NCBI GenBank assembly: GCA_949300375.1
Contig: CASGEB010000007.1
Span: 7,439 to 71,438 of the forward strand
Length of the DNA: 64,000 nucleotides
Origin: an uncultured Pseudomonadota bacterium
GTDB lineage: Bacteria > Pseudomonadota > Alphaproteobacteria > RF32 > CAG-239
Direction of reading: 5' to 3'
Shown piece after piece: positions 9,726 to 64,000 of this stretch (position 1 is its first letter; each line of letters opens with the position of its first letter). Under the pieces are notes generated by a model. It worked only from the letters and a program-made list of their open reading frames with translations, had not been told where the DNA came from and did no database searches. Made by a program: the position numbers and the translations under genes.

Positions 9726-10458
9726 AAGAATCAAAGTTGTGGCTGCCAGCGTGAAAGGCCCGATGCATCACCACAAAAATCTGCCTTGTCAGGATTTTTT
9801 CAAATTCTGCCGCAAAGGACGGAACTTTGTGGCTGTTGTTTCTGACGGCGCAGGTTCTGCAAAATATGGCAAAATCGGCGCCAAAACGGTTTGCGAAACC
9901 CTCATCGACCATCTAAAAAACGCCCCGTCGAATTCTTTTAAAGAAACAGTGAAGAAGGCCATTGAAATAGCCCGAAACAAAGTTTGCCGCCACAGACTCA
10001 ACCAAAGCAAAAGCCTTGAACACATCAACGATTTTGCCGCCACGGTTGTCGGCGTCGTGCATGACGGCGAAAAAGGAAGCTTTTTTCATATCGGAGACGG
10101 GGCGGCTTTGGCTTTTAAGAATGGAGAGCCATCCTGTTTTGTGGCTTCGCCTCCAGAAAACGGCAGTTTTTCCTGCGAGACTTTTTTCTTTACCCAAAAC
10201 AACTGGGCTGCAAATTTGCGTTTTACCGAATTTTCCGGCCTGGATACGATTTTTTTAATGAGCGACGGCTTAACAAATTTTGCTTTTTCAAAAGATTTTA
10301 ACCGGATTGAAAACGGTTTTATTCTGCCGATACATGATTTTCTGCTGGCAGAAAAACCCGAAAAAAAAGCCGGACGGGCGTTGGCAAATACGCTGAATAA
10401 TGCGCAGGCACGCAAACTCAACCAGGATGACAAGACCCTGCTTTGGGCAAAATTATGA
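9715..10458 (+). CDS. PP2C-family Ser/Thr protein phosphatase
   Basis: VAVVSDGAGSAKYG, FFHIGDGAA and IFLMSDGLTNF are PP2C_2-type metal-binding motifs. ATG 9715 overlaps the vWA stop by 11 nt; the track starts at TTG 9694. Confidence 0.8.
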   Translation: MKNRRIKVVAASVKGPMHHHKNLPCQDFFKFCRKGRNFVAVVSDGAGSAKYGKIGAKTVCETLIDHLKNAPSNSFKETVKKAIEIARNKVCRHRLNQSKSLEHINDFAATVVGVVHDGEKGSFFHIGDGAALAFKNGEPSCFVASPPENGSFSCETFFFTQNNWAANLRFTEFSGLDTIFLMSDGLTNFAFSKDFNRIENGFILPIHDFLLAEKPEKKAGRALANTLNNAQARKLNQDDKTLLWAKL

Positions 10459-28365: not shown

Positions 28366-31069
28366 CTAGTGCGCCTGCGTCCAGTTGTCTCCGACCCCGA
28401 CTTCGGCAACAAACGGCACAGAAAGGCTGACTGCTCCTTCCATAATTTTTTTAATTATACCAGAGGCCTCTTCAACCTCGTTTTCCGGCGCCTCAAACAC
28501 CAATTCATCATGCACCTGCAGCAGCATTTTAGTTTTTAGTCCGTGTTTTTTAAGTTCGTCCGGTATCCGGTTCATCGCCAGTTTGATTATATCGGCCGCA
28601 CCGCCCTGAATCGGGGCATTAATCGCCGCACGTTCGGCATTGGCGGCCAGACGTTTATTTTTATCGTTAATCCCCATAATTGAGCAGCGTCTTCCAAACG
28701 GCGTCAGGACATAATCATTGGCACGGGCAAAGGTTATCGTATCATCCATATATTTCTTAATTTCGGGCATTTCGCGGAAATAGGCGTCAATATAAGCTTT
28801 GGCATCTTCCGGCGCCACACCGATTTGTCTGGCCAGTCCATATGCGGAAATACCGTAAACAATTCCAAAATTGATGGCTTTGGCGTGACGGCGGGTGTCG
28901 GCATCCACTTTATCATACGGAATCCCAAAAACATGCGATGCCGTTGCCGCATGAACATCCACACCTGCAGCAAAAGCGTTTTTCAGTGCCTTAACATCGG
29001 CAACAGCCGCCAACAGCCGTAATTCTACCTGCGAATAGTCGGAAGAAATGATTTTGCAGCCCGGCCGGGCGATAAAACATTCGCGGATTTTTTTGCCCTC
29101 TTCCGTTCTTATCGGAATATTTTGCAGGTTCGGATTGCTGGAAGCCAGACGCCCGGTATTGGCAACAATCTGACTGAAAGTTGTATGAACGCGAGAGTTT
29201 TTATCCAATAATTCCAACAGGGCATCGCTGTAGGTTGATTTGAGCTTGGCAAGGGCTCGCCAATCAAGGATTTTTTGTGCCAGTCCGCAACCGTCTTCCG
29301 CCAGCTGTTCAAGCACTTCAGCACCTGTTTGCCAGGCGCCTCCCGGTGTTTTTTTGCCTTTCAGCCCCATTTTTCCAAACAAAATTTCACCGATTTGTTT
29401 GGGAGACGAAAGGTTGAATTCTTCTCCGGCAAGATTATAAATTTCCGTTTCCAAAATCCGCATCCGGCTTTCAAAATCAGAGCTGAGGCGGTGCAAGGCC
29501 TGCGCATCGACCATAATTCCCTGCTGTTCCATATCTTTCAATACCGGAATCAGCGGACGGTCAAAACTTTCATAAATATTCAGCAGCCTTTCGGCAAACA
29601 AGCGTGGTTTTAAAACATTATATAACCGCAGCGTGATGTCGGCGTCTTCGGCAGCATAAGCCAGCGCCTTGTTCAATTCCACTTTGTCAAAGGTTATTTT
29701 GTCGCGACCGCTGCCGCAGACTTCCTCATATTTTATTGTCTGGTACCGCAGGAAAATTTCGGCCAATTCATCCATTCCGTGTCCATGAGTCGAACTGTCC
29801 AAAACATAAGAAATGACAGCCGTATCTTCGACCGGTGCAAAAGCGGCGCCTTCTCCGATAACCTGAGTAAAAAAGTGCATATCAAATTTGATATTATGGC
29901 CGATTTTTAAAATGGCTTTGTCAGCAAATAGCGGTGCCAGATGTTTTTTGACCGTTGCAAAATCAAGCTGCCGGATTTTATTGTCAGCCGGAGCAGAAAA
30001 AAGATTCTTCCGTTGCCAGGGAAAAGCCGACAATCTTGTCAAAAACCGGGTTAAACCCTGTGGTCTCAGTATCAAAAGCAAAAAGGCGCTTTTGTTTTAT
30101 TTTTTCCACCCATTTTTTCAGCTGTTCTTCCGTCTGCACCAGCTCATAATGTTTTTCAACCTCTTTAAATACAGTGTTTTGAACATCCTCAGGCAAAGCC
30201 GAACAGCGTTCATCCGCCCATTTTTCAATCCGACTTTTCAGACTGCGGAATCCGTAATCATCTATAAATTTATGCAAAACATCCAAATGCGGCGCCCGGC
30301 AGGAAAAAGCCGTAATGTCTTTTTCAACCGGGACGTCATTTTTTAAGGTTACCAGCTGCAGAGAAATGCGGGCATTGTCAATATTGGCAAGCAGAGTTTC
30401 ACGCCGTTTGTTTTGTTTGATTTCGGACGCACGGTTCAGCACTTCTTCCAATGAACCGAAGTCATTTATCAGCTGCGCCGCCGTTTTCAGCCCGATACCG
30501 GGAACGCCGGGAACATTGTCTATCGAATCGCCGGCCAGCGCCTGCACGTCGACAACCCGTTCCGGATAGACGCCGAACTTTTCTTTAACGTCTTCCGGCC
30601 CGTAGAATTTGTCTTTCATCGGGTCATAATATTCCACACCATCGCGAATCAGCTGCATCAGGTCTTTATCGGCAGACACAACAACAACTTCCATACCCTT
30701 TTCCGTTGCCTGGCGCGCATAAGTCGCAATCAGGTCATCGGCTTCATAGCCTTCCATTTCCAAATAGTTTAAATTCAACGCGTTTGTCGCCTCGCGGATT
30801 ATCGGAAACTGAGGAATCAGTTCTTCGGGGATTTCGGCGCGCGTACCTTTATAATCGGGGAAAATTTCATTGCGGTAATTTCGGCGTTTGGCGTCAAAAA
30901 GCACCAGACAATAATCGCATTTGATATTCTGAGTCAGGCGCAAAAACATATTGGTATAGCCAAATACGGCATTAACCGGTACGCCGGACGGACTGGTCAT
31001 CATCGGAAGACCGTAAAAGGCACGGAAAATATAGCCGGAGCCGTCAATGAGACAAACTTTCTGAGTCAT
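28366..31069 (-). pseudogene. polA: DNA polymerase I, reading frame interrupted once (or a sequencing indel) at an A6/T6 run
   Basis: ORF 29984-31069 gives the 5'-3' exonuclease plus the start of the 3'-5' exo-like domain (FAFDTETTG). ORF 28366-30081 gives the rest (ILKIGHNIKFD, DYSQVELRLLA, QVHDELVFE). The frames differ by +1. Removing one base of the run at 29997-30002 gives a continuous ...GFSLATEESFSAPADNK... Confidence 0.9.
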
Positions 31070-37418: not shown

Positions 37419-38558
37419 ATGTTAAAGAAAATCTGGACATTTTTGATTGCGGCAGCAATTATAGCAGCAGTAGCGGCAACGGGATATTTCTTTGCCAAAA
37501 AGAAAAGCGAACCATTGTATCAGTCAAAAATCGACCGGGTTATGTTTGACAGAAAAAATAAAGTTCCTGGCTTTATTATGCGGCTGCCGGACAAAGAACC
37601 GCCCGAGACCAAAAGGCCGGTTACGCCAAAAGAAGAAGAGGATATATCTCCCAGAGCTCTCGAAGCAAAAGCTTTGCTGGATAAAATCCCTTTGGCGGCC
37701 AAACTTCCGAAGAACAGTGTTCAGATTCCGTTGGAACATATTAATGCCGATAAAAATCTAATTGAAGAAAATGACGGCGTTTTTCTTCCTAAAATCGGAA
37801 GAAACGGAGAAAAAGCCTGGATAGAATACGGAAAGACGGAAGAAGTTCAGCCTAATTTTTACAAGGTATCCGTCATTATTAACGGATTGGGGCTGGATTC
37901 AATGGTTACCAATGCCGCCATAGAAAGCCTTCCGATTAATGTTTCTTTGTCCTTTTCGCCTTATTCTCTCGATTTAGACAAGCAAATCAAAGCCGCCCGC
38001 ACTATCGGGCATGAAACTTATGTTGATTTGCTTTTGCCTTCAAAAAACTTTTTAAAATCGGATACCGGCCCTTTGGCAATGAGTATAACGGCGACATCGG
38101 ACGAAAATATCAACCGGTTGAAAAAATCTCTTAATGTTAACGCTCCTATCGGCGGAATGGTTTTTCAGCGCGGTATTGTTGATGAAGAAAATCCGCAGCG
38201 GATGCAGCAGCTTTTAAAAGAAATTGCAGATATGGGACTGCTGGCTGTTGACGCTACCGGAGAATCCCATATGGAAAAAATTACTTATAACGGCTTACCG
38301 AGAAAAAAAGCCGACATTGTCATTGACAGTTACTTTACCCGGGAAGATATTGACGAGCGTTTGAAAGAAGCGGAAAGAATAGCTCAAAACAACGGCAGCG
38401 TCTTAGTGGTAGCAAACCCCAAACCGGTTGTTTTATATGCCATAAAAGACTGGGTTTCTTCTTTTTCGCCGCAGATTTCCGATTATAAAGAAATAAAAAA
38501 CACTATTATAGAAAAACCGCTGGCTTTGGTTCCGGTATCAAATATCGTGGTGGAATGA
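37419..38558 (+). CDS. divergent polysaccharide deacetylase family protein (YibQ-like)
   Basis: 379 aa. N-terminal TM, then a C-terminal domain resembling the YibQ family. Its position after envC-like and ctpA matches what I recall as the usual proteobacterial arrangement. Confidence 0.65.
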   Translation: MLKKIWTFLIAAAIIAAVAATGYFFAKKKSEPLYQSKIDRVMFDRKNKVPGFIMRLPDKEPPETKRPVTPKEEEDISPRALEAKALLDKIPLAAKLPKNSVQIPLEHINADKNLIEENDGVFLPKIGRNGEKAWIEYGKTEEVQPNFYKVSVIINGLGLDSMVTNAAIESLPINVSLSFSPYSLDLDKQIKAARTIGHETYVDLLLPSKNFLKSDTGPLAMSITATSDENINRLKKSLNVNAPIGGMVFQRGIVDEENPQRMQQLLKEIADMGLLAVDATGESHMEKITYNGLPRKKADIVIDSYFTREDIDERLKEAERIAQNNGSVLVVANPKPVVLYAIKDWVSSFSPQISDYKEIKNTIIEKPLALVPVSNIVVE

Positions 38559-39058
38559 TGAACAAATTATATCGGCCAAACGCGGGAATCGTGCTTTTTA
38601 ACCGGGAGGGAAAAGTTTTTGTTTGCGCCCGCGCCGACAAACAAGATATGCAATGGCAATTTCCACAAGGCGGAATTGATGACGGGGAAACAGCAGAACA
38701 GGCTGCTGTCAGAGAGTTGAAAGAAGAAACAGGCATAACATCGGCAAAATTTGTTTATGCCGCTCCGCAAACCGTAAAATACGACTATCCGCCATTCGTT
38801 TTAAAAAAATTTCAAAAGCTCGGCCGGCCGCATATCGGACAGGAACAACATTGGTTTTTATTTTTTTATGACGGCGCGGAAAAACCTGATTTTACAACGC
38901 ATCTGGAAGAAATTGAATTTAAAGCTTACGATTGGGTCGGATTTGACGAGGCGGTTAAAAGAATTATCGGTTTTAAAAAAGAAAGTTATCAATATGCTCA
39001 AAATGTTTTTGAACCGGTAATCGCCGCTTATCTTAAAAAAGAAGAAAAAACTAACTAA
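38555..39058 (+). CDS. rppH: RNA pyrophosphohydrolase (Nudix)
   Basis: 167 aa. YRPNAGIVLFN start and Nudix box GGIDDGETAEQAAVRELKEETG. Confidence 0.85.
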   Translation: MMNKLYRPNAGIVLFNREGKVFVCARADKQDMQWQFPQGGIDDGETAEQAAVRELKEETGITSAKFVYAAPQTVKYDYPPFVLKKFQKLGRPHIGQEQHWFLFFYDGAEKPDFTTHLEEIEFKAYDWVGFDEAVKRIIGFKKESYQYAQNVFEPVIAAYLKKEEKTN

Positions 39059-52485: not shown

Positions 52486-54915
52486 TTATCTGAACATACT
52501 GCCATGCGTTTCTCTGGCATAATGAACATATTTTTTATACAGATATTCCAGACGTTTTTGAACCTCATAATTAACGGTTCCTTTTTTATAGCGGCCATTT
52601 TTATCAGATTTTCCGGCTTTTATTCCGGTCAAAATTTCAATGCCGTCATCAACCGTATCTATGGCATAAATATGAAATTTTCCTTCATCGACAGCCGTTA
52701 AAATATCATCACGCAGCATCAGGTTTTTAATATTTGTCCGCGGAATGATAACGCCTTGCGTCCCGGTCAGCCCGTGATGTTTGCAGACATCGAAAAAGCC
52801 TTCGATTTTCTCATTCACGCCGCCAATCGGCTGAATTTCGCCAAACTGGTTGATAGACCCGGTTACGGCAATGTTTTGTTTAATCGGAATTCCGGAAATG
52901 GCTGACAAAAGGCAGTAATATTCGGTTGAAGACGCACTGTCGCCGTCCACGCCGCCGTAAGACTGCTCAAAAACTATCGAAGCGCTCAAGGACAACGGTG
53001 TTTCTTTGGCAAAACGATTGGCCAGCAAACTTTGTAAGATAAGCACGCCTTTAGTATGAATTGGACCACTCATTTCGACTTCGCGCTCAATATTAACAAA
53101 ATCGCCGCTGCCAATCCGAACCTGAGCTGTGATTCTTGCCGGTTTGCCAAAGCTGGTGCGGGAGAAGTTATATACGACCAGGCCGTTAATCTGCCCGACG
53201 CGCGAACCGGTTACATCCATCAAAATCGAACCATCGTCAATTTGTTCCAACATCGCTTCTTTTATCCGGCTGCTCCGGTAAATTTGTGCTTCTATTGCCT
53301 GTTCAACGTGATTTTTGCCGATTTGGTTGGATTTTGAAACCCGGGCCCAATAGTCTGCTTCTCTCAACAAATCGCCTATCGAGGCAATATGGGCGGTTAA
53401 TTTTTCAGAATCTTCCGCCAAACGGGACGAATATTCAATAATTTTGGCAACGGCCTGTTTATTCAATGAACGCAGTTTCTTTTTCTTGGACAACGAACCG
53501 ATTAACTTGGCATATTCGATTTCATTATCGTGCGTTCTGTCCATCAACATACCAAAGTCGGCTTCAACTTTGAAGAAATCATTGAAGTCGGGATCCCTTT
53601 CCGACAAAACGTCATATAAATCGGCATCGCCCGTCAGAATAACTTTGACATCCAACGGAATCGGCTCGGGATCAAGAGAGATGGTCGTAAAACTGGTTTC
53701 ATCGCTCGGCGCCTCAATTTTTATGCATTTTGAGGCTAATGCCCGTTTCAGGGAATCCCAGGCAAATGGCTGCAAAAGAAGCTTGCGGGCGTCAATCAGC
53801 AGAAAGCCTCCGTTGGCGCGGTGCAAAGCGCCGGCTTTAATCAAAGTAAAGTCTGTCAGCAAAGCACCATATTGCTGCAGCCGTTCAACCCGTCCGACCA
53901 GATTGCCCTGCGTCGGGTGATCAAGGTGAACTATCGGGGCGCCGGAGTTTTTCTCGTTTTTAACAACGACATTAACCTTAAATTTGGCGAACTTATCTTC
54001 TTCCTGTTTGTTCATCCGGTTGAGCAGGGAAGTCAGAGCATCTTCTTCGCAGCCGGCGTTTTCTTTGTCCGGCAAAAATTCTTCAATATGTTCAACAATA
54101 TATTTCTGAATACTGCGCAGAAATTCTCCTGCCTGGCGGTGTCCTTTATATTTCTGACGCAAGGCGTCTATCGGGCGCTTAACGGCTATTTTGATAAATT
54201 TTTCACGCAAAATGTTAATTTCTTTACGCTGCTTTTCTTCATAATCGGGCAAATCCTGCGCTGTGTTTTCAATCTCTTCCTGCATGGCATTGAGATCGCT
54301 CATCAACTGCTGTTTTTCGTTATCCGGGAGTTCTTCAAACGCTTCCGGACTCAAAACTTCGCCGTTTTTGACCGGGGCAACAACCAGCCCGACCGGCATA
54401 TGAAGCAGAGATACGCTTTTTCCCTTGGCTTTTTTTTGCAGGATTTTTATATATTCTTCTTTTTTCTGCTTATATTTTTCTTTGATAATGCTTAATCCGG
54501 CTTTATATTCGTCGCTGTCAACAATTGCCGGCAGGGAAACAGAAAAGTCTTCAATCAATTTATCAATATCTTTGGCAAATTCGGTTGCTTTGGACGGCGG
54601 AAAACTGATTGCCAGAGGTTTATGCGGTTCTTCAAAATTGTAAATATACGCCCAGTCATCCGGGGTCGGGCGTTTTTTGGCCTCTTCGACCAAAACGCGT
54701 TTGACCAGGCTGGTTTTGCCGGTTCCTTCCGGCCCCAGACAAAACAGGTTATATCCTTTTGACTTGATGTTTATTCCAACTTCAACAGCACTTAAAGCCC
54801 TATCCTGCCCAAGAGCGGAAAGGCGTTCGGCAAGTTCGGCCGTTGTGCTGAAATCAAATTTTTTGGGATCGCATTTGGTATAAAGCTGCTCGGATTTTAA
54901 TTTTGAAATGCTCAT
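52486..54915 (-). CDS. Lon-like ATP-dependent protease (AAA+ with large insertion + S16 Lon C-terminal domain)
   Basis: 809 aa. Walker A GPEGTGKTS. C-terminal Lon proteolytic domain with SYGGVDGDSASS (catalytic Ser context) and a downstream GGVNEKIEGF segment (probably the catalytic Lys context). Confidence 0.8.
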   Translation of the reverse strand: MSISKLKSEQLYTKCDPKKFDFSTTAELAERLSALGQDRALSAVEVGINIKSKGYNLFCLGPEGTGKTSLVKRVLVEEAKKRPTPDDWAYIYNFEEPHKPLAISFPPSKATEFAKDIDKLIEDFSVSLPAIVDSDEYKAGLSIIKEKYKQKKEEYIKILQKKAKGKSVSLLHMPVGLVVAPVKNGEVLSPEAFEELPDNEKQQLMSDLNAMQEEIENTAQDLPDYEEKQRKEINILREKFIKIAVKRPIDALRQKYKGHRQAGEFLRSIQKYIVEHIEEFLPDKENAGCEEDALTSLLNRMNKQEEDKFAKFKVNVVVKNEKNSGAPIVHLDHPTQGNLVGRVERLQQYGALLTDFTLIKAGALHRANGGFLLIDARKLLLQPFAWDSLKRALASKCIKIEAPSDETSFTTISLDPEPIPLDVKVILTGDADLYDVLSERDPDFNDFFKVEADFGMLMDRTHDNEIEYAKLIGSLSKKKKLRSLNKQAVAKIIEYSSRLAEDSEKLTAHIASIGDLLREADYWARVSKSNQIGKNHVEQAIEAQIYRSSRIKEAMLEQIDDGSILMDVTGSRVGQINGLVVYNFSRTSFGKPARITAQVRIGSGDFVNIEREVEMSGPIHTKGVLILQSLLANRFAKETPLSLSASIVFEQSYGGVDGDSASSTEYYCLLSAISGIPIKQNIAVTGSINQFGEIQPIGGVNEKIEGFFDVCKHHGLTGTQGVIIPRTNIKNLMLRDDILTAVDEGKFHIYAIDTVDDGIEILTGIKAGKSDKNGRYKKGTVNYEVQKRLEYLYKKYVHYARETHGSMFR

Positions 54916-54998
54916 TTTGAAAAATTTCCTATACTTCTGTTTTTTTATTGCTATGCTGATAATATAAGTGCAATAACTAAGATAATGTTAAAGATTTG

Positions 54999-56471
54999 AT
55001 GAAATATTTGTTACTGACCACAATTTTATTTTTCAGCGTTTTGTTTCTGCTGTTGAGAAAGTCATTGCTGACGGCCTGCTGGAAAAAGAAAATTTTTCAG
55101 CATTTGTTGTATTTGCAGTCCTTTAATACCGGAGAAAAATTTTTTGCCAGACCGACTTCCGACCGAATCTGCCGTCTTGCATTGCAGCAAAGCGGCGGAG
55201 AAGAAGCCCTGCAGCATTTTATTTCCGAACAGAGCAAGCCGCTGCGTTATCTTTTGAAAAAAGCAGGTTTGCAAAAAGAAGCCGCCGTTCTGACAGCTTG
55301 CCGAAAACCGGAAAAAGCCATCCGCCCTCTTGTTTCCTGTTTGAAAAACAAACCTGATGACCATGAAACGGCTGTTTATCTGGCAGAACTCTATTTTTTG
55401 ACAGGAAAAAAGGAAAAAGGAATGGCTTTGCTGGAAAAAATTCCTTCCAAAATTAAAAACCGCTATATCCGCGCGGTTAAAAATTATTTGCTGGCTCAAG
55501 ACGCCGCAAGCTGCGGCTGTCTGCAGGAGGCATCGGAATACGGCGCAGCAGCCGTTGCCGGTTTTGAAAAAGAACACGCCTTCTACGAGGCGGCAAGGGC
55601 GCAGATCTTTTTGGGAACAATTTACCGCGTTTCTGCCATAGAAGATGTTTCCGAGCTAATGCTGCGGGCTGCGAAAAAAATTTATGAAGACATAAAATTT
55701 CCGGACGGCGTGGCCGATGCCTGCGGAAATCTTGGTATGCTGATGGTTATGCAAAAACGCTTTGATGAAGCTGAAAATTATTTTCACCAAGCCCGCTGCA
55801 TAAATAAAAAACTCGGCAGAAAAACGGCTGAAGCTGAAATCATCAACCAATCGGCCTTAATGAAACTTATCCGAGGAGATGCCAAAGGAGCGCACAAAAC
55901 AGTTTTGGACGCATTAAAAATGCACCAAGAACAAAAAAATCCACAGGGAGAAGCCTTTAGTTTTGATATCTCCTGTTATATTCTGCTGCATCAGAAAAAT
56001 TATAAACCTTTGATTAAAACTGCGGAAAAAGCAGAAAAGCTGCATACGGCGCTTAATGATGCGTCGTCGCGACTGGATTGTCTATATTTGCAGGCAACGG
56101 CTTATTTTGAACTGGGTGAAACGGAAAAAGCGGAATCTATTTTGCGACAAATTGCCGAAGAAGCAAAAAACGAATCCGCCAATTTTCATATTGCCAACGC
56201 TTACAGCCTGCTCGGACTTATTTTTTTGCAAAAGGGAGAATTGCTGCGGGCAAAGGGCTTTTTTGCCCAGTCTCTGCAGTTGGAACAGAAAAACGACCGA
56301 TTAAACGCTGCCGCAACAGATTTTGCCAATATAGCCCTGATTGAACATAAGCGCGGGCAAAAAGAAGATGCACGCAAGAATTTGGAACAAGCCGTTCAAT
56401 GCGCAAAAATCTGTGGTGATGAGGAATTGGAAAAAATTCTGAGCGAAGAATTATCTAAATATTCAGATTAA
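54999..56471 (+). CDS. TPR-repeat protein with N-terminal membrane anchor
   Basis: About 490 aa. N-terminal hydrophobic helix, then repeated 34-residue A/L/Y/G patterns (e.g. ANAYSLLGLIFLQKGELLRAKGFFAQSLQLEQ). Confidence 0.65.
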   Translation: MKYLLLTTILFFSVLFLLLRKSLLTACWKKKIFQHLLYLQSFNTGEKFFARPTSDRICRLALQQSGGEEALQHFISEQSKPLRYLLKKAGLQKEAAVLTACRKPEKAIRPLVSCLKNKPDDHETAVYLAELYFLTGKKEKGMALLEKIPSKIKNRYIRAVKNYLLAQDAASCGCLQEASEYGAAAVAGFEKEHAFYEAARAQIFLGTIYRVSAIEDVSELMLRAAKKIYEDIKFPDGVADACGNLGMLMVMQKRFDEAENYFHQARCINKKLGRKTAEAEIINQSALMKLIRGDAKGAHKTVLDALKMHQEQKNPQGEAFSFDISCYILLHQKNYKPLIKTAEKAEKLHTALNDASSRLDCLYLQATAYFELGETEKAESILRQIAEEAKNESANFHIANAYSLLGLIFLQKGELLRAKGFFAQSLQLEQKNDRLNAAATDFANIALIEHKRGQKEDARKNLEQAVQCAKICGDEELEKILSEELSKYSD

Positions 56472-56796: not shown

Positions 56797-57849
56797 TTAA
56801 TCAACTACTTTTATGGTAAATTTTTCGGAATTGCCGGCCGGTGCGGCGGCAGATGTCCGGGCAGGCATCTGATTTTCCGGATTCACGTTATTTTTGCGCT
56901 TATTTTCCAAGATGTCAACAATCATATCCAACTCGGCAACAGAAGCATATTGCAGAACGACTTTTCCGCCGCCTTGTTTGCTTGGCGTAATTTTTATCCG
57001 CAAACCCAGAGATTTTTTCAAATCCCTTTCAATAGTTTCCAAATCTTCATTCTTTTTGACTGATTTTTTTTCTTCTGTTTTATCGCCTTTTTCTTTCAGA
57101 CGGTTGACGAGTTCTTCTACCTGCCGGACGCTTAAATCTTTTTGGATGATTGTTTTAGCCAGTTCCTCGGCATTTTCCAGCCCTATCAGACAACGGGCGT
57201 GGCCGGCGCTCAATTTACCTTCTTTTATCATTTCTTTTATCGAATCGGGCAAACTAAGCAAGCGCAATGTGTTGGCAATATGGCTGCGGGATTTGCCGAC
57301 AATTTGCGACAAAGCTTCCTGAGTGTGGGAAAATTCGTCAATCAGACGCTGAAAACCTTCGGCTTCTTCTATAGCAGACAAATTTTCACGCAGCAGATTC
57401 TCAACCAGGGCAACTTCTAAAACTTCTTTATCATTAAGGTCTTTGATGATAACGGGAAGTTTTTCTAATCCGGCTTTTTGTGCGGCACGCCAACGGCGCT
57501 CGCCGGCAATGATTTCATATTTATCGTCTTTTTTGCGAACCAATAAGGGTTGGAGAACTCCCTTTTCTTTGATTGATTCGGCCAAAGCATTTAAGGCCTC
57601 TTCATCAAATTCGCTTCTTGGCTGATATTTCCCCGGAACAATGCTGCTGACGGGAATTTCGATATCTGTATGGCTCCCGGCAGGGGAATCGGCTGTTAAA
57701 AAAACATCTTCGGCTGTTAAATCATCATCGCCCAGCAAGGCGCCGAGCCCGCGTCCTAGACTTTTGCGTTTGTGATGTTCCGTATTTTCCGTATGAGAAT
57801 TTTCGTTTTCGCCGCTATTCAGCAGTTCGTCCAATTCATTATCTAACAT
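56797..57849 (-). CDS. parB: chromosome partitioning protein ParB
   Basis: 350 aa. LGRGLGALL, QPRSEFDEEAL, GERRWRAA, HTH region. Confidence 0.92.
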   Translation of the reverse strand: MLDNELDELLNSGENENSHTENTEHHKRKSLGRGLGALLGDDDLTAEDVFLTADSPAGSHTDIEIPVSSIVPGKYQPRSEFDEEALNALAESIKEKGVLQPLLVRKKDDKYEIIAGERRWRAAQKAGLEKLPVIIKDLNDKEVLEVALVENLLRENLSAIEEAEGFQRLIDEFSHTQEALSQIVGKSRSHIANTLRLLSLPDSIKEMIKEGKLSAGHARCLIGLENAEELAKTIIQKDLSVRQVEELVNRLKEKGDKTEEKKSVKKNEDLETIERDLKKSLGLRIKITPSKQGGGKVVLQYASVAELDMIVDILENKRKNNVNPENQMPARTSAAAPAGNSEKFTIKVVD

Positions 57850-58622
57850 GCAACCAATTCCTTCTCTCTTTTTAATACTTCACCGGTCAGGCTGATATAT
57901 GCCTGCGAACCCGGGCATTTGAAATCATAAAGCAAAACAGGTTTGCCGTGCGACGGCGCTTCCGAAATCCGGACGTTCCGCGGTATAACAGTGTTATAAA
58001 CCTTTTTTCCGAAGAAGTTGCGAACATCTTCTTCGACCATTTGAGTCAGGTTGTTTCTTTTATCGTACATTGTTAAGACAACACCCTGAAGCTCCAATGA
58101 CGGGTTAAATCTTTTTTTAATCGTATTAATATTCCGAATCAAATCCGTAATGCCTTCCAAAGCCAAAAATTCACATTGCAGAGGAACAATTACGGCGTTG
58201 GCCGCCACAAGTGCGTTTATGGTTACGAGGCTCAAAGACGGCGGACAATCAATCAGGACATAATCATAATTAACGGCATCACGCTGAATGGCCTTTTTCA
58301 GCGCATATTCACGGTTATCCATATCGACAAGCTCAATTTCGGCTCCGGCCAGATCCGGAGACGACGGAACCAGAGAAAAATTTGGAATCTCCGTCCAGAC
58401 AATTGCTTCGCTCAATTTACGCGCCCCCAAGAGAACTTCATATGAAGAGACCATACGGCCGCGTTTGTCGATACCCATGGAAGTTGACGCATTTCCCTGC
58501 GGATCCAAATCAATTACCAAAACCTTTTTGCCGGTGGCGGCCATTGCCGTTGCAACATTGACTGTCGTCGTGGTCTTGCCGACGCCTCCTTTGCGGTTGG
58601 CTATAGCAATTATTCTTGGCAT
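57843..58622 (-). CDS. parA: chromosome partitioning ATPase ParA
   Basis: 259 aa. Deviant Walker A NRKGGVGKTT, DLDPQGN. Confidence 0.93.
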   Translation of the reverse strand: MPRIIAIANRKGGVGKTTTTVNVATAMAATGKKVLVIDLDPQGNASTSMGIDKRGRMVSSYEVLLGARKLSEAIVWTEIPNFSLVPSSPDLAGAEIELVDMDNREYALKKAIQRDAVNYDYVLIDCPPSLSLVTINALVAANAVIVPLQCEFLALEGITDLIRNINTIKKRFNPSLELQGVVLTMYDKRNNLTQMVEEDVRNFFGKKVYNTVIPRNVRISEAPSHGKPVLLYDFKCPGSQAYISLTGEVLKREKELVAC

Positions 58623-58625
58623 ACA

Positions 58626-59243
58626 TTATCTCCTTTTCTGAATATCCGTTATAATTAAAACAACACCTTCATTGCTTTCACTGCCGGGCAAAATTTCCAT
58701 AGAGAATTTCCAAAACTTTTCAGCTTCTTCTATTTCTTCTTTGTAACTTTTGCCTTTGAGAAAAATACATCTGGTTTTTTTAGTGCAAAATTTCTGAGCG
58801 TAGCCCAACAGGCTGTTTAATGACGCCATTGCCCGCGACGTAATGGCGGCCGCCGGGTCGGCAGGCAAGTTTTCAATCCGTTGATTTATAATCTCAACAT
58901 TGGTTATACCGGTTATTTTTTCCACTTCTTTTAAATACAGCGTTTTTTTATTAACACTTTCAACAAGCTTGAATTTTAAATACGGCGTTTTTTCTTGAGC
59001 CATAATAGCCAGCACCATCCCCGGAAAGCCAGCTCCTGAGCCAAAATCATAAACCGTCCCCTTATCCGGCAACAAAGAAAAAATTTGCATAGAATCTAAA
59101 AAATGACGTTTCCAAGCATTTTCCAGTGAATTACGGCTAACCAGATTCATACGATTTTGCCACTCATAAAGTGATGATTCGTACAACTTTAACTTTTCCA
59201 TTGTTTCACGTGAAACAGTATATTTATGCTCTAAATTTTCCAT
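58626..59243 (-). CDS. rsmG: 16S rRNA (guanine527-N7)-methyltransferase
   Basis: 205 aa. HFLDS, DFGSGAGFPG SAM motif. Located upstream of parA. Confidence 0.9.
   Translation of the reverse strand: MENLEHKYTVSRETMEKLKLYESSLYEWQNRMNLVSRNSLENAWKRHFLDSMQIFSLLPDKGTVYDFGSGAGFPGMVLAIMAQEKTPYLKFKLVESVNKKTLYLKEVEKITGITNVEIINQRIENLPADPAAAITSRAMASLNSLLGYAQKFCTKKTRCIFLKGKSYKEEIEEAEKFWKFSMEILPGSESNEGVVLIITDIQKRR
59202..59217. repeat. 16-bp perfect palindrome TGTTTCACGTGAAACA (copy in rsmG codons 9-14)
   Basis: Read directly from the sequence. The 18-nt ATTGTTTCACGTGAAACA is identical to 63943-63960. Confidence 0.9.
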
Positions 59244-59400
59244 AAAATATTTATATAATTTTTATAAAAAATTTAAAATATAAAAAATACAGTTATAAAC
59301 ACCTAATTTAAGATAAAAAAAACGAAACACAGACAACAAAACCTTTTATAAAAAAGATTCTAAAATCAACAACTTAAACATAGTTTTCTGAATCAATTCA

Positions 59401-60240
59401 TCAATATTTATTTAATTTCCAATAATTTTTATATCCAATATTTTGCAAAAAGCTTTCAGCATCTGTAAAATTACGGCACAATTCACTCGTTCGATGGGCG
59501 TCATCACTAATAAGAATTGGAATATTGAGCATATGCATCTTTTGCAACAGTATCGGCGCCGGGTAGTAATGACCGTCTTTTCGGAGTCCTTTGGTGCTTA
59601 ACTCCGCCGGAATATTGTTGTTTGCCAGAGTTTGCAGCAACTGTTCTTTTTCCGGCATAAAGCTTTCGTCATTACATCCCGGAACCCGACGCATATAATC
59701 AATATGCGCCACAAAGCTAAATAGTCCGCTGGCAGCGGCATCTTTTATCGTAAGAAAGTGCCGACGGAGAAAATCTTTTTGCTGAGAAAGATTCGGAATA
59801 TGTTTGGTTAATTCATCGGCATCAATGGGATATTCACAGTTTTCGGAAAAAAGAAAATGGTTACCGGTGATATAATAATCCAGGTTCGTTTGTTTTTGAA
59901 AATTTTTAAATTCTTCCAACCAACCGTCATAAGTGAAAAAATCTACTTCGGCGCCAACAAAGATTTTTAGAGGATAATTTTTTTTAAGCTTTTCTATTTC
60001 GGCCTTATATTTTGCAAAAGCATCGGCAGCTTCGGCAAAATCAGTCCGATAGATATGGGCGCCGTGATAAGCCTGAAGTTTTGGCCAACTCGGACTCTGT
60101 TTAAAATTTTTATGAACGACCAGATGTTCGGAAAAGCCAATCTCTGCCAAGCCGCATTTAACGGCTTGTTCCAACATTTCTTCGGCAGTATTGCGACCGT
60201 CGGAAAACAACGTATGTGTGTGATAACTGAAATTTTGCAT
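59401..60240 (-). CDS. PHP-domain phosphoesterase (HisJ-type histidinol-phosphatase family)
   Basis: 279 aa. YHTHTLFSDG (HxH), GFSEHL, FVAHIDY and SDDAHR metal-ligand motifs of the PHP fold. Confidence 0.8.
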   Translation of the reverse strand: MQNFSYHTHTLFSDGRNTAEEMLEQAVKCGLAEIGFSEHLVVHKNFKQSPSWPKLQAYHGAHIYRTDFAEAADAFAKYKAEIEKLKKNYPLKIFVGAEVDFFTYDGWLEEFKNFQKQTNLDYYITGNHFLFSENCEYPIDADELTKHIPNLSQQKDFLRRHFLTIKDAAASGLFSFVAHIDYMRRVPGCNDESFMPEKEQLLQTLANNNIPAELSTKGLRKDGHYYPAPILLQKMHMLNIPILISDDAHRTSELCRNFTDAESFLQNIGYKNYWKLNKY

Positions 60241-60242
60241 AG

Positions 60243-61667
60243 CTAAACTTCATAATACGGCAAAAGTTTTATATCTTCCCCTTCAACAGAAGTTTGAATA
60301 TCTATGCCGATATTTTGTAAATTATGCACCAGGTTCGGATATCCGCGCAAAGCATATGAAGGCGTTTTGATTGTGCTTTTTCCTTTCGCAACGGCAGCAG
60401 TCAAAATCAGACCTATTGTGCCGCGCAAATCCATTCCGCTGACATCGGCTCCTTGATATTTTGATGGGTGGATTTTAACAATTAAAGCTTCTTTGTTGGC
60501 GATGACCTGACTGGTTACGATATCTATTTTTTCACTTTCGCAATTTAATCCGAATTTGCGCATTTCTTTTAAATGTCCGTCGCGTCCCGGCCAAATGGCA
60601 TCGGTTATCATCGAATCATTCTCGGCCAAACCTAATATCGGCGTCCAAATCTGTTGAATATCCGTTTCAGCTCCGGGAAACGGCGTCATTTGCATAACGA
60701 CACCATTAAATTTCGGACGATTGCAAAAATTAAAACTAAGCTGTGTTCTGTCGGGAGAATAAAAAATTCCGCTTGAAAACATTTTATTTAACTGTGAAAA
60801 CCACGGACGGCAGTGTTCAAAATTGATTCCATTAATCTGTATCTCTCCTTTTGTTCCCAACGCAAGCAACGCATAAGTCGCAGCCTCTATCCGGTCTGGT
60901 ATAACATAAAAACTTCCGCCTTTAAGCAGAGATTTGTTTTTTCCATCATAAATTATGCCGGTGCTTTCACTATCTGTTAATCCCAGTCCCATTTGCTGCA
61001 GCATATCTATCAGGTTTGAAACTTCCGGCTCGAGCGAGGCATTGTAAATCATTTTGACATCCTGAGCGCCGGCAACCGCCAAAAGCCAGTGAAACGTCGC
61101 CCCATGAGAAACGCGCAATGTGGTGTAAATTGGACGGATTGTTTTTGGATTTTTTTTCGGAAGGGTGAAAATCAGATAATTTCCTCCGCCGGTATTTTCT
61201 TCTTCTATTGATGCTCCCAAAACCGAACGAATTAAATCTTCATGAAAATCCGTCGGACGTTTGCCGCCAAAAGAACAGCCGCCCGGAACATAAACTTTCA
61301 GACTGTCAAACTCTTTGGTATAACGAAACCGGGCCAGCAGCGACCCCCAAAGGTAATAACTTGCGCGGATATGCGAAGCTTTTTGTGAAACAATATTATT
61401 GCTGATTTTTGCCGCATGAAGATATAAAATTTTCTGCCGGAAATTATAGCGGACATCAACGCCCAATTCTATCAATATCTGTCCTAATTCCAGAACATCG
61501 CTGATATTCGGAACATTATGCAATATAACCGGTTCATTGGTCAGTAATGCTGCGCACATCAATCCGAGAATCGAGTTTTTTGCTCCGCTGATGTCAACTG
61601 AACCGGCAACCGGTTTTCCGCCATTTATAATTAAATTTTCCGGAATAAAAAATCTTGATTTCAGCAT
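60243..61667 (-). CDS. MurA-like enolpyruvyl transferase (EPSP synthase fold), divergent long paralog
   Basis: 474 aa. Colinear with MurA: ISGAKNS, IRASYYLWGSLLARF, VPGGCSFGGKRPTDFH (Cys in the MurA catalytic-loop position), PDRIEAATY, DLRGT, RGY. Confidence 0.8.
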   Translation of the reverse strand: MLKSRFFIPENLIINGGKPVAGSVDISGAKNSILGLMCAALLTNEPVILHNVPNISDVLELGQILIELGVDVRYNFRQKILYLHAAKISNNIVSQKASHIRASYYLWGSLLARFRYTKEFDSLKVYVPGGCSFGGKRPTDFHEDLIRSVLGASIEEENTGGGNYLIFTLPKKNPKTIRPIYTTLRVSHGATFHWLLAVAGAQDVKMIYNASLEPEVSNLIDMLQQMGLGLTDSESTGIIYDGKNKSLLKGGSFYVIPDRIEAATYALLALGTKGEIQINGINFEHCRPWFSQLNKMFSSGIFYSPDRTQLSFNFCNRPKFNGVVMQMTPFPGAETDIQQIWTPILGLAENDSMITDAIWPGRDGHLKEMRKFGLNCESEKIDIVTSQVIANKEALIVKIHPSKYQGADVSGMDLRGTIGLILTAAVAKGKSTIKTPSYALRGYPNLVHNLQNIGIDIQTSVEGEDIKLLPYYEV

Positions 61668-61724
61668 TGCGCACCTTCCTTTATTTTGATTGCGCTATTA
61701 TATTTTATAATGGTTAATTACGGC

Positions 61725-62360
61725 TTAATAATCCCTCTCTTTTATTCCCAGAATGCGGTAAACATCTGTCTTACACAAAATGTCAAAATGTCTTTTTAAA
61801 GGTAAAACATCGCGAATCAGGTTTTGTTTTTGAGCTGCTGACAAGTGATAGCGCCGGGCAATGCCTTCGGCTCGCTGTTCAATGGTTACAAAATTAAAAT
61901 CTTCGGTCAACATATCGCAAAACTGGATTAAGCGGTCGTAATCATCATATTTATAATTGCGAAGTTTTGTTTTTGCCCAATCAAGCCATTCTTTCGGGTA
62001 ATTATATTCTTCATCCGAAAAATTTTGAATATGAAAAGTATGAGTCAGGCAAATGCGGGCAACGTCATCATAACCGAGTTTTAACATTTCTTCATAGCCT
62101 TCGCGTCCGTGAAAGCGGTTTTCTTCCCGTTCGTTAATTCTTTTGCCGTAATCGTGCAAAAGGCCTAATATATACGCTTTTTCAGAATCAAGAAAAGGTA
62201 TGCATTCTGCAATAATTTTTGCAAAACGCGCTACATTTCTGGTATGAAAGGCGTAAGCATCCCGGTCTTTAAAATGATACGGTTTAGACAAGCGGTTAAG
62301 AATTACCGCGTGCCAAAGTTTCTCGGCCGTGACCAGATCCGGAAATTTTGGTTTTATCAT
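61725..62360 (-). CDS. HD-domain metal-dependent phosphohydrolase, paralog C
   Basis: 211 aa. H...GLLHDYGK...FHG...THTF...FCDML, i.e. an H-HD-H-H-D ligand pattern. Confidence 0.75.
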   Translation of the reverse strand: MIKPKFPDLVTAEKLWHAVILNRLSKPYHFKDRDAYAFHTRNVARFAKIIAECIPFLDSEKAYILGLLHDYGKRINEREENRFHGREGYEEMLKLGYDDVARICLTHTFHIQNFSDEEYNYPKEWLDWAKTKLRNYKYDDYDRLIQFCDMLTEDFNFVTIEQRAEGIARRYHLSAAQKQNLIRDVLPLKRHFDILCKTDVYRILGIKERDY

Positions 62361-62979
62361 ATTTTACTCCTACCAAATCGTAAATATTCCGGCCGCATTT
62401 TTGTTCAAAATATGTCTTGATTTGCTGCAATTGTTTCACGTGAATCAAAATTCCGGGATTGTTGTAACGTCGCGCCAAACTGGCAAAACGGTATTCTATC
62501 GTACAACTCGTCCCTTTGTCATTCAACACATCAGCCAGCTGCAGCAACAGGTCGTAATCATTATAGGTCACGTTTTTGAGATACGCCTGACATTTTAGCA
62601 AATCATCATACGGCTGGGTAAATTTTTTAATATCGAAATCTTTATCATAAAAACTATGGGTAATGCATATGCGGGCAACATCGTTATATCCTTCGGACAT
62701 CATCCAGTCAAAACCGACGTTGGCGTGAAAACGGTTTTCGGCAAATTCATTAATACAACGGCCGCAATCATGCAATAATCCCAGGACATAGGCTTTTTCA
62801 GAATCAAGCCCGGGGCAGCAGCCGGCTATTTTTTCGGCAATTGAAGCAACAGCATGGCAATGTTTGCGAAATTCGGTTTCCCATTCCGGCTTAAAAGGGT
62901 ATTTTGTGGCATTGCGTTTTTGAATCACTGTTTCAAAAAGTTCTTCCGCTTTTTTTCTGTCGGGATACAACCGATTCAT
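62296..62979 (-). CDS. HD-domain metal-dependent phosphohydrolase, paralog B (3' end overlaps paralog C by 65 nt)
   Basis: 227 aa. HCH...GLLHDCGR...FHA...THSF...LADVL. Its C-terminus runs about 15 residues beyond where paralogs A and C stop. Confidence 0.75.
   Translation of the reverse strand: MNRLYPDRKKAEELFETVIQKRNATKYPFKPEWETEFRKHCHAVASIAEKIAGCCPGLDSEKAYVLGLLHDCGRCINEFAENRFHANVGFDWMMSEGYNDVARICITHSFYDKDFDIKKFTQPYDDLLKCQAYLKNVTYNDYDLLLQLADVLNDKGTSCTIEYRFASLARRYNNPGILIHVKQLQQIKTYFEQKCGRNIYDLVGVKYDKTKISGSGHGRETLARGNS
62432..62447. repeat. near-copy of the palindrome (TGTTTCACGTGAATCA) inside HD paralog B
   Basis: 17 of 18 match to ATTGTTTCACGTGAAACA. The corresponding residues (IHVKQ) are not conserved in paralogs A or C. 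Confidence 0.8.
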
Positions 62980-63014
62980 TTTTCATATTTTCCTTTTTAA
63001 ATACATTGTTTAAA

Positions 63015-63644
63015 TCAAACAGATATTTTATGTTCTATTTCTAATAAATCATAAATATTGCACCGACATTTTTTATCAAAATACTCTTTCAATTCATTCA
63101 TTTTTTTAACTGAGGCTTTTACTACCTGATCATTCAGGTTATGTCTTCTGGCAACACTGTCAAAACGATATTCTATGGTGCACTGGCGTCCACAATCGTT
63201 TAAAATATCAGCCAGCTGAATCAGATAGTCGTAATCATTAAACGACAAAGATTTAAGAAGTTCGCGGCAGCGGACATAATCCTGCGGTTTCATTCGGTAC
63301 ATTGAAAGATTTAAGCGCGGTTCATAGAAACAATGAGTAAAGGCGATACGGGCGGCATCAGGCATTTTATGAGAAAAGAGATAGTCAAAACCCGTCAAAC
63401 CATGAAAAACACATTCTGTTCTTTCATCTTTTATTCTGCCGGCATCATGCAAAAGCCCGTATATATATGATTTTTCAGGGTCAAGATTTGAGGCGGCCTG
63501 AGCGATTTTTTTAGAAATAAAGGCAACGGAAAGACAATGATCATAAAATTTCTGTTCTATTTCAGCCGAAAAAGGGCATAATGAATGCCTGCGCGTTTCT
63601 ATGACCTTATTTAAAAGAGATTTTGCTTTTTCAACTTCCGACAT
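63015..63644 (-). CDS. HD-domain metal-dependent phosphohydrolase, paralog A
   Basis: 209 aa. H36, H66-D67 (GLLHDAGR), H81 (FHG), H104 (THCF), D146 (LADIL). ATG lies 3 nt after the mnmG stop. Confidence 0.75.
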   Translation of the reverse strand: MSEVEKAKSLLNKVIETRRHSLCPFSAEIEQKFYDHCLSVAFISKKIAQAASNLDPEKSYIYGLLHDAGRIKDERTECVFHGLTGFDYLFSHKMPDAARIAFTHCFYEPRLNLSMYRMKPQDYVRCRELLKSLSFNDYDYLIQLADILNDCGRQCTIEYRFDSVARRHNLNDQVVKASVKKMNELKEYFDKKCRCNIYDLLEIEHKISV

Positions 63645-63647
63645 TTG

Positions 63648-64000
63648 CTACCTGTTTATATAAGATAAAATTGCCATAACCGCAGCTGGGGTTACCCCCG
63701 GAATGCGCGATGCTTCGCCGATTGTCGCCGGACGGACTTTACTGAGTTTGAAAACCATTTCACGCGACAGACCACCGATTTTGCTATAATCTATGTCATT
63801 GCGCAAACGCAAATTTTCGTCTTTTTTGAATATTTGAATATCAGCCAGCTGGCGTTTTAAATATCCGGCATATTTTGCTTCAATTTCTATTTCTTCATAA
63901 ACATCTGCCGGAATCTCTTTTAATTCAGGCCAGATATTCGTTATTGTTTCACGTGAAACACCTTCATAGGACATTACGTTAAAGGCCGTTCTTTTTGTTC
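63648..64000 (-). CDS. mnmG: tRNA uridine 5-carboxymethylaminomethyl modification enzyme MnmG, C-terminal part (gene continues beyond window end)
   Basis: C-terminus ...IEAKYAGYLKRQ...GLSREMVFKLSKVRPATIGEASRIPGVTPAAVMAILSYI matches MnmG. The frame stays open upstream of the track's Met to position 64000. Confidence 0.9.
   Translation of the reverse strand, partial: TKRTAFNVMSYEGVSRETITNIWPELKEIPADVYEEIEIEAKYAGYLKRQLADIQIFKKDENLRLRNDIDYSKIGGLSREMVFKLSKVRPATIGEASRIPGVTPAAVMAILSYINR
63945..63960. repeat. 16-bp perfect palindrome TGTTTCACGTGAAACA (copy in mnmG)
   Basis: Read directly from the sequence. Encodes VSRET, as does the rsmG copy. Confidence 0.9.

Follow-up and report, generated by a model that had tools for sequence, protein, structure and literature searches.

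The mnmG-rsmG junction

The window analysed here, a 64-kb stretch (64,000 nucleotides) of contig CASGEB010000007.1 from an uncultured alphaproteobacterium, carries a block of five co-oriented genes between mnmG (gidA) and rsmG (gidB). They encode three paralogous HD-domain proteins (HD_A, HD_B and HD_C), an enolpyruvyl transferase resembling MurA and a phosphoesterase of the PHP superfamily (Table 1). We reproduced the coordinates and intergenic gaps of the initial annotation from the open reading frames (ORFs), and Pfam profile searches confirmed its domain calls (HD three times, EPSP_synthase and PHP). It was also correct that the locus departs from the usual adjacency of mnmG and rsmG. The mnmG fragment in the window encodes a product 86% identical to the MnmG C-terminus of the related locus L002, and the full-length gene, with GIDA and SAM_GIDA_C Pfam matches, is seen in another relative (L001). 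The long start of HD_C is supported by its homology to the HD paralogs, which begins at residue 5-6. Named homologs of the block proteins come mostly from metagenome-assembled genomes (MAGs) labelled Alphaproteobacteria or Rickettsiales, with human and termite guts among the habitats sampled; the host is an uncultured, mostly gut-associated alphaproteobacterial lineage.

Table 1. Genes and sites at the mnmG-rsmG junction, with positions counted from the first letter of the window
Feature	Position	Strand	Remarks
mnmG (gidA), 3′ part	63648..64000	minus	ORF 63648-63974, runs off the window end
parS-type ParB-binding palindrome TGTTTCACGTGAAACA	63945-63960		inside mnmG 3′ part; exact match
HD_A, stand-alone HD-domain metal-dependent phosphohydrolase (predicted), orthogroup A, 209 aa	63015-63644	minus	starts 3 nt past the mnmG stop
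HD_B, HD paralog, orthogroup B, 227 aa	62296-62979	minus	35-nt gap after HD_A
parS-like site	62432-62447		inside HD_B; 1 mismatch
HD_C, HD paralog, orthogroup C, 211 aa	61725-62360	minus	65-nt overlap with the HD_B 3′ end
Long-form MurA-like enolpyruvyl transferase (predicted), 474 aa	60243-61667	minus	57-nt gap after HD_C
HisJ-family PHP phosphoesterase (predicted), PHP1 type, 279 aa	59401-60240	minus	2-nt gap after the MurA-like gene
AT-rich spacer upstream of rsmG, 157 nt	59244-59400		16.6% GC
rsmG (gidB)	58626-59243	minus	TIGR00138, 135.6 bits (cutoff 99.5)
parS-type palindrome TGTTTCACGTGAAACA	59202-59217		inside rsmG 5′ part; exact match
parA	57843-58622	minus	downstream operon member
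parB	56797-57849	minus	ParB/RepB/Spo0J model TIGR00180, 207.6 bits (cutoff 58.45)

The 16-nt palindrome TGTTTCACGTGAAACA corresponds to the ParB-binding parS consensus, TGTTNCACGTGAAACA (PMC7022226). The three parS-type matches listed in Table 1 are all that the 64-kb window contains, with zero expected by chance. The copies in mnmG and rsmG, both of which encode the peptide VSRET, are kept in 18 of the 18 junction loci checked, the rsmG copy being exact in every one, and the single-mismatch copy in HD_B recurs inside the HD_B ortholog of L002. Since the two outer copies are conserved, the variable gene block lies between two conserved, predicted centromere sites. A repeat search found no repeats flanking the block other than these parS copies, and parA and parB are syntenic in all relatives.

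The low GC content that the initial annotation noted for single sequence lines extends to the block as a whole, at 38.8% versus 43.9% for the whole window. The GC content at third codon positions (GC3) of the five block genes is 0.31-0.41, versus 0.474 +/- 0.040 for the 43 other window genes, with HD_A at z = -4.0. However, rsmG, a housekeeping gene bordering the block, shows values no higher than these (GC 37.4%, GC3 0.369), so the composition reflects a mild regional trend and gives no clean signal of a foreign island. The AT-rich spacer before rsmG has counterparts of 117-156 nt at the equivalent position in L002, L094, L097, L098, L090 and L092, whatever genes precede it, and is probably an internal promoter region. 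An Rfam search gave no match in the block or in this spacer, and a scan of the block for promoter-like and terminator-like signals gave counts near the shuffle expectation, marking no internal transcription-unit boundaries.

Junctions of relatives and the descent of the block

Related junctions were gathered through genomic-context look-ups, a genome scan and a search of metagenomes that started from the HD alignment, so that the sampling is biased by the query used. A scan of the genome collection with the MurA-like alignment gave at least 600 matches, mostly canonical MurAs, with four in-family loci among the matches listed. The 29 complete junctions fall into 15 architectures, which we write with one letter per gene (H, HD; P, PHP; M, MurA-like; N, NUDIX; f′, a flavodoxin-like gene in reverse orientation): HP and HPP (six junctions each), HHP and MP (three each), and H, HH, HHPP, HMP, HHMP, HMPP, HHHMP (this window), HHHMPP, NMHHf′, NMPHHf′ and NMHPHHPf′ (one each). 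HD and PHP genes are each present in 26 of them; the MurA-like gene occurs in 11 and a NUDIX gene in three. The block genes thus recur together in relatives at the same locus, which is the co-occurrence that the initial annotation had proposed to check, but they do not form the single unit that it had envisaged, as HD, PHP and MurA-like genes prove separable. Junctions with HD and PHP but no MurA-like gene are the most frequent type: of 17 metagenomic junctions retrieved by way of HD, only L101 has the MurA-like gene and 16 do not. This gene stands with PHP and without any HD in L008, L009 and L098, and lacks PHP in L005. Its most distant family members (46-48% identity) are solitary beside obg (L006 and L010), and it is single copy in every locus seen. 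Because the parts occur apart in related junctions, the five genes do not form an inseparable set; HD plus PHP is a widespread resident of the junction and the MurA-like gene a separable passenger.

Elsewhere, a pair made up of a NUDIX gene and, 3 nt after it, an HD gene belonging to this family lies beside tuf (L088 7365-8642, from the same MAG as L005), and HD homologs outside the lineage (32-40% identity) are solitary with unrelated neighbours. In eight of 48 metagenome loci of unrelated bacteria, an AraC-family regulator precedes the solitary HD homolog (e.g., L174 6841-7833). At L089 6541-7359, the PHP gene after the MurA-like gene is broken into ORFs of 198 and 63 aa and is probably a pseudogene.

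The neighbor-joining tree of the MurA-like proteins has a topology identical to that of the MnmG tree from the same loci, the pairwise distances correlate with those of mnmG and of rsmG (r = 0.93 in both comparisons), and the divergence rate is about that of RsmG. This congruence of tree and distances with mnmG implies that the MurA-like gene was inherited vertically at the junction and was not recently inserted there. A recent horizontal insertion is rejected on the same grounds, despite the lower GC3, and the word "insertion", by which the initial annotation had described the block, is misleading for an arrangement this old. In a larger neighbor-joining tree of mnmG, the junctions with the MurA-like gene fall into three clades, between which lie clades without it, implying at least three losses or relocations of the MurA-like gene. 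The MurA-like tree also holds lineages seen without genomic context ("orphan" clades P0042/P0044/P0048 and others), one of which is placed where the copy of the L090/L092 lineage would be expected. The HD copies comprise at least four orthogroups and the PHP copies two ancient ones (PHP1 and PHP2), of which the window retains HD A, B and C and only PHP1. HD_A has an ortholog in L002 (60% identity), HD_B in L002, L094 and L097, and HD_C in L002, L090 and L092.

The initial annotation had allowed for a nucleotide-based defence, and we considered in this connection that the block might be a horizontally acquired defence or mobile island acting through nucleotide depletion or modification. The GC3 below that of the rest of the window, with the z score of HD_A, would fit such an origin, as would the occurrence of HD and NUDIX domains in some defence systems and the variation of paralog number among genomes. 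We nevertheless regard it as exceedingly unlikely. PADLOC models returned only trivial matches to Cas3-HD motifs (E >=1e-5) and no defence-system protein, the 2.9 million viral contigs of IMG/VR held no homologs of the HD or MurA-like families, no tRNA or other RNA genes lie within or beside the block, and no signature of mobility was found. Moreover, the block is inherited vertically with mnmG and occupies the same chromosomal site in all relatives, and rsmG shares the low GC3. The claim that this gene combination matches no described system, in contrast, is borne out both by PADLOC and by our literature searches, which found no such system and nothing relevant on the lineage.

The HD and PHP hydrolases

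All three HD proteins score above the gathering threshold of PF01966 (E = 1e-8 for HD_A, 5.7e-6 for HD_B and 1e-10 for HD_C). Their mutual identities of 31-44%, with HD_B 44% identical to HD_A and 40% to HD_C, mark them as old paralogs. Across 67 diverse members of the family, the residues H36, H66-D67, H81, H104 and D139 are invariant, spelling H..HD..H..H..D, the ligand pattern of two-metal HD hydrolases, and the family has further invariant residues of its own (R18, Y60, E74, Y138, R160 and R167). The AlphaFold2 model of HD_A is all-helical with a mean predicted local distance difference test score (pLDDT) of 93.8. Compared with the PDB, it recovers only the generic HD fold at template modelling (TM) scores of about 0.45 (best E = 7.6e-3, TM 0.47), its neighbours being PgpH, an HDOD protein, YqeK, YpgQ, YfbR and small alarmone hydrolases (SAH), as well as the HD-like domains of a tRNA-processing complex (3wfr) and of Escherichia coli glycyl-tRNA synthetase (7eiv).

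Sequence similarity to YqeK and HDOD proteins is confined to the first 50-60 residues. The HDOD profile (PF08668) is matched at 25.6-30.4 bits against a gathering score of 22.9, yet only over profile positions ~87-134 of 196. HDOD domains are typically non-catalytic, and with all catalytic ligands present in the block proteins we read these matches as shared similarity in the H..HD region, not as HDOD membership. The YqeK model TIGR00488 likewise reaches 18.6 bits, far from its cutoff of 70.15, over the first ~45 residues only, which argues against membership of that family. The closest described counterparts are YqeK, a diadenosine tetraphosphate (Ap4A) hydrolase, and PgpH-type enzymes (PDB 8jja, 2ogi and 4s1b). 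They share with the block proteins a stand-alone all-helical HD domain of ~200 aa and the H..HD..H..H..D pattern, and are among their best sequence and fold matches, but the TM scores are only 0.41-0.47 (0.42-0.46 for YqeK) and the sequence similarity is limited to the N-terminal part (E = 0.003-0.4). The HD proteins are a subfamily without a characterised member, which comprises 2,776 clusters in a word-indexed search. In relatives, HD-HD fusions of ~411-421 aa occur (L004 12862-14097, L005 11495-12760 and P0121-P0129), suggesting that the separate HD paralogs may act together as hetero-oligomers.

The PHP protein matches PF02811 (E = 1.4e-15) and exceeds the cutoff of the HisJ-family model TIGR01856 (100.1 bits versus 90.2), while falling below that of the HisJ equivalog model NF005996 (75.6 bits versus 133). 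The nine PHP metal ligands of the trinuclear site are invariant (H7, H9, D14, H39, E98, H128, H179, D247 and H249). Its AlphaFold2 model (pLDDT 96.8) is best matched by histidinol-phosphate phosphatases (2yxo at TM 0.74-0.78, 3dcp at 0.72 and 4gyf at 0.66-0.70), with PolX, YcdX, RNase AM and CpsB well below them (RNase AM at TM 0.32-0.37). We identify it as a HisJ-type phosphomonoesterase. Although it passes the HisJ/HisK subfamily cutoff, has all nine ligands and finds its best folds there, it is only 18-23% identical to the solved enzymes, and each genome has one to three such PHPs, which are ancient paralogs and in no locus seen adjoin his genes. One PHP paralog may act on histidinol phosphate; no his genes were found in the 64-kb window or in the related loci.

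Together, these proteins would constitute a first module of the junction, made up of one to three stand-alone HD hydrolases and one to three HisJ-type PHP phosphomonoesterases, which a NUDIX protein joins in one subclade. We infer that they are soluble hydrolases of nucleotides or phospho-metabolites serving salvage or house-cleaning, that the paralogs probably differ in substrate and that one PHP copy may be the histidinol-phosphate phosphatase of the lineage. Consistent with such a role, the nearest HD folds (PgpH, YqeK, YpgQ, YfbR and SAH) are all nucleotide hydrolases.

Alternatively, the HD and PHP proteins could contribute to what the surrounding operon does for RNA or the chromosome, either in the healing or processing of tRNA or rRNA ends, with HD as a 2′,3′-cyclic phosphodiesterase and PHP as a phosphatase or exonuclease working alongside MnmEG and RsmG, or in a control of nucleotides relevant to ParABS. 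Their tight coupling to mnmG (a 3-nt gap in the window, a 4-nt overlap in L090) and their place between two conserved parS sites, constant in every relative, would be accounted for in this way. The presence of 3wfr and 7eiv among the HD fold neighbours, the membership of RNase AM in the PHP superfamily and a cca gene in the window without an HD domain match point in the same direction. Conversely, the PHP fold is of the small-molecule HisJ type (TM 0.72-0.78) and not that of RNase AM (TM 0.32-0.37), HD homologs elsewhere are solitary and have no RNA or partition context, and adjacency is weak evidence in compact genomes. We consider this role distinctly improbable.

The long-form MurA-like protein and readings of the block

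The MurA-like protein matches the EPSP_synthase profile PF00275 over positions 2-417 of 417 (E = 5.9e-44). It also aligns to positions 3-415 of 416 of the MurA model TIGR01072, at 270.8 bits or 69% of the cutoff (392.7), and scores 287.2 bits on NF006873 (cutoff 297). Its best PDB match is the Streptococcus pneumoniae MurA (3zh3; E = 7.3e-52, 179.9 bits), with the gammaproteobacterial MurA weaker at ~125 bits and the UMP 3′-enolpyruvyl transferase NikO (4fqd) at 73.6 bits (E = 1.3e-19). Among 137 canonical MurAs, 32 positions show at least 93% conservation; at 31 of these the canonical residue is also the majority residue of the family, and at 27 at least 90% of the members have it. The family retains K30, N31, R101, C131, the loop R137-P-T-D-F-H142, D336, R362, R415 and R441-G442-Y443, with K30, C131, R137, D336, R415 and R441, the catalytic and phosphoenolpyruvate-binding set, invariant. 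These we take to be E. coli Lys22, Asn23, Arg91, Cys115, Arg120-His125, Asp305, Arg331, Arg371 and Arg397-Gly-Tyr. The positions contacting UDP-N-acetylglucosamine (UDP-GlcNAc) are likewise kept (N31, R101, R137-P-T-D-F-H142, S187-H188-G189 and R362), with only the middle residue differing in the S-x-G motif, presumably E. coli Ser162-x-Gly164. The full-length MurA alignment, the retained canonical residues and the much weaker NikO match indicate that the protein is most likely a genuine UDP-GlcNAc enolpyruvyl transferase.

An exhaustive search of 1.84 billion representatives recovered six full-length clusters of this family, of 466-481 aa at 352-663 bits, and the PGAP label of most named members is "hypothetical protein". 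A Rickettsiales protein (P0248, 484 aa) considered as an intermediate turned out to be a canonical MurA (546 bits) extended at its N-terminus. In a neighbor-joining tree with canonical MurAs, the family comes out as monophyletic, without being assigned a sister group.

Like MurA (TIGR01072/NF006873; PDB 3zh3 and 1uae), the long-form proteins have the full-length two-domain EPSP-synthase fold and the GGC catalytic loop with Cys115, and Lys22-Asn23, Arg91, the Arg120-Pro-x-Asp-[LF]-His loop, Asp305, Arg331, Arg371 and Arg397-Gly-Tyr are invariant in them. They differ in being ~470 aa long, ~55 residues more than MurA through four insertions, in being only 30-38% identical to any canonical MurA, in scoring 236-290 bits where canonical proteins score 380-550, and in forming a clade restricted to uncultured Alphaproteobacteria. 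With NikO and PolA, the UMP 3′-enolpyruvyl transferases of nikkomycin and polyoxin synthesis, they share the fold and the enolpyruvyl-transfer chemistry, and the phosphatase that acts later in those pathways is the analogy behind the earlier single-pathway model. Beyond that they diverge: the similarity is weaker, the GlcNAc-contacting residues of MurA are kept, and in the loci examined the neighbours are housekeeping genes, with no radical-SAM or nucleoside-antibiotic genes nearby.

The organism evidently builds peptidoglycan, as the window encodes a class A penicillin-binding protein (PBP), an M23 peptidase, a Ctp protease and an LpoA-like lipoprotein; it contains no second murA within its 64 kb. 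We propose a second module in which the long-form MurA would move the enolpyruvyl group of phosphoenolpyruvate (PEP) to UDP-GlcNAc by means of Lys22, Cys115, Asp305, Arg120, Arg371 and Arg397. It would most probably be the peptidoglycan-committing enzyme, perhaps as the housekeeping and possibly sole MurA, having entered the operon in one part of the lineage and later left the junction in several sublineages. Overall, we read the block as a vertically inherited enlargement, specific to this lineage, of the origin-proximal operon mnmE-mnmG-rsmG-parA-parB, built of independent modules and not of one pathway. This modular operon extension, combining uncharacterised HD and HisJ-type PHP hydrolases with a divergent, catalytically complete MurA that is probably the cell-wall enzyme of the lineage, is the reading to which we incline, with modest confidence. 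Its anatomy, the separability of its parts, the vertical descent and the intact catalytic sites are established by the data, and the HD and PHP substrates and the housekeeping role of the MurA are inferred.

Several observations weigh against it. Scores on the MurA subfamily model (cutoff 297) are low family-wide, at 236-290 bits, so that all eight other members tested fail as well, while canonical neighbours reach 381 and 546 bits. RsmG, GyrB, DnaX, RadA and RpsA of the same genome pass their equivalog cutoffs and the MurA-like protein does not. The family carries four insertions, and two of its invariant residues beside the active site differ from MurA, His188 standing where 92% of canonical MurAs have Val (Val163) and Glu334 replacing Pro303. 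With no member scoring below 352 bits and nothing outside above 195 bits, the family stands apart as a discrete clade. The trees are neighbor-joining trees without usable support values, and at least three losses from the junction are easier to explain for an accessory than for an essential gene. Finally, where a genome has both genes, PHP mostly follows the MurA-like gene at a distance of 0-3 nt, a spacing that could reflect functional coupling.

Much of this would be expected if the long-form MurA were an accessory paralog, MurA2-like or neofunctionalised, with a canonical MurA elsewhere and the HD and PHP genes as unrelated neighbours. Such a paralog would still be an enolpyruvyl transferase, acting on UDP-GlcNAc or a similar compound, with a specialised role, for example in an alternative cell-wall or envelope glycan or in regulation. 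The discrete clade with its large score gap to canonical MurA, a divergence far above that of the other housekeeping proteins of the genome, the family-specific H188 and E334 near the active site and the patchy presence at the junction (at least three losses) all speak for it, as does a PDB ranking nearer to Gram-positive (180 bits) than to gammaproteobacterial MurA (~125 bits). Set against these are vertical inheritance across the whole lineage at an rsmG-like rate, the single copy in each locus seen, and distant members that stand alone in a housekeeping context by obg. Context-less MurA-like lineages also sit at the tree position expected for relocated copies, and no canonical murA appears in ~60 related loci, which cover only a few percent of each genome. 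To our knowledge, two MurAs are rare in Gram-negative bacteria, which also counts against an accessory paralog. We judge it unlikely, though as the main rival it deserves serious consideration.

The PHP spacing bears on another model, in which the MurA-like protein makes an enolpyruvyl-modified nucleotide or phospho-sugar that PHP, its almost constant downstream neighbour, and the HD and NUDIX proteins then process, in a small-molecule pathway particular to the clade. PHP is present in 10 of the 11 MurA-bearing junctions, usually at that short distance downstream, and all partners belong to phosphohydrolase superfamilies typical of nucleotide chemistry; nikkomycin and polyoxin biosynthesis, where enolpyruvyl transfer is followed by dephosphorylation, offers a precedent. 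Yet most sampled junctions have HD and PHP without the MurA-like gene, which itself persists without HD, without PHP or without both, and the PHP2 and HD orthogroups are present irrespective of it. The substrate-binding residues are of the UDP-GlcNAc and not the NikO type, and among hundreds of homologs there is no fusion of the MurA-like protein to PHP or HD. Such a coupled pathway appears improbable to us. In the stronger form given in the initial annotation, with all five products acting on one molecule such as an enolpyruvyl-nucleotide trimmed by phosphatases, it is not supported, as the MurA-like gene dissociates freely from HD and PHP and the MurA active site is complete, including the UDP-GlcNAc contacts. 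Equally doubtful is a neofunctionalised long-form transferase whose product is handled by the adjacent PHP (and in some lineages HD or NUDIX) in a clade-specific nucleotide-sugar or phospho-metabolite pathway housed within the parS-bracketed region, or its variant in which HD, PHP and NUDIX act on a nucleotide linked to the functions of the origin-proximal operon.

Returning to the modular reading, if the long form is the only MurA of the lineage, an essential cell-wall enzyme and target of fosfomycin goes unnamed by current annotation pipelines in widespread gut Alphaproteobacteria, and the changed residues beside its active site would merit structural work. As a second copy, it would instead be a rare Gram-negative MurA paralog, possibly with a new role. 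The HD subfamily, which is large and common in gut metagenomes and has a full catalytic site and no characterised or structurally close relative, is a reasonable target for substrate screening, and the fast-changing hydrolase paralogs placed exactly between two conserved parS sites are a curiosity for studies of chromosome organisation. These findings do not amount to a new kind of system: the kinds of enzyme are already known, and it is the variant that is new.

The other genes of the window are of a housekeeping kind (rsmE, cmk, rpsA, nadE, xth, lolA, rlmN, cca, gyrB, polA, dnaX, recR, radA, mlaEF and thyX), and its RNA genes are two tRNA-Ala and one signal recognition particle (SRP) RNA. 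The cca-type enzyme of the CCA-adding/poly(A) polymerase family (23007-24227) is matched in its head and RNA-binding domains, with no HD domain match. A separate NUDIX hydrolase (38555-39058; E = 2e-25), which has the lowest GC3 of the window (0.345), lies downstream of a run of PBP1A, iPGM, M23, Ctp and polysaccharide-deacetylase genes. A Lon-related protein of 809 aa (153 bits versus the LonB cutoff of 517) and a neighbouring TPR protein of 491 aa (together 52486-56471) separate parB from thyX, which in L002 and L094 follows parB almost directly. The polA gene is split into two overlapping ORFs on the minus strand (28366-31069), one for the 5′-3′ exonuclease (29984-31069) and one for the 3′-5′ exonuclease and polymerase (28366-30081), with a T6 run near 30000; a frameshift, decay into a pseudogene or an assembly error might explain the split. 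On the plus strand at 9039-11927, consecutive, overlapping ORFs for a VWA-domain protein, a PP2C phosphatase and a Ser/Thr protein kinase resemble a compact signalling module.

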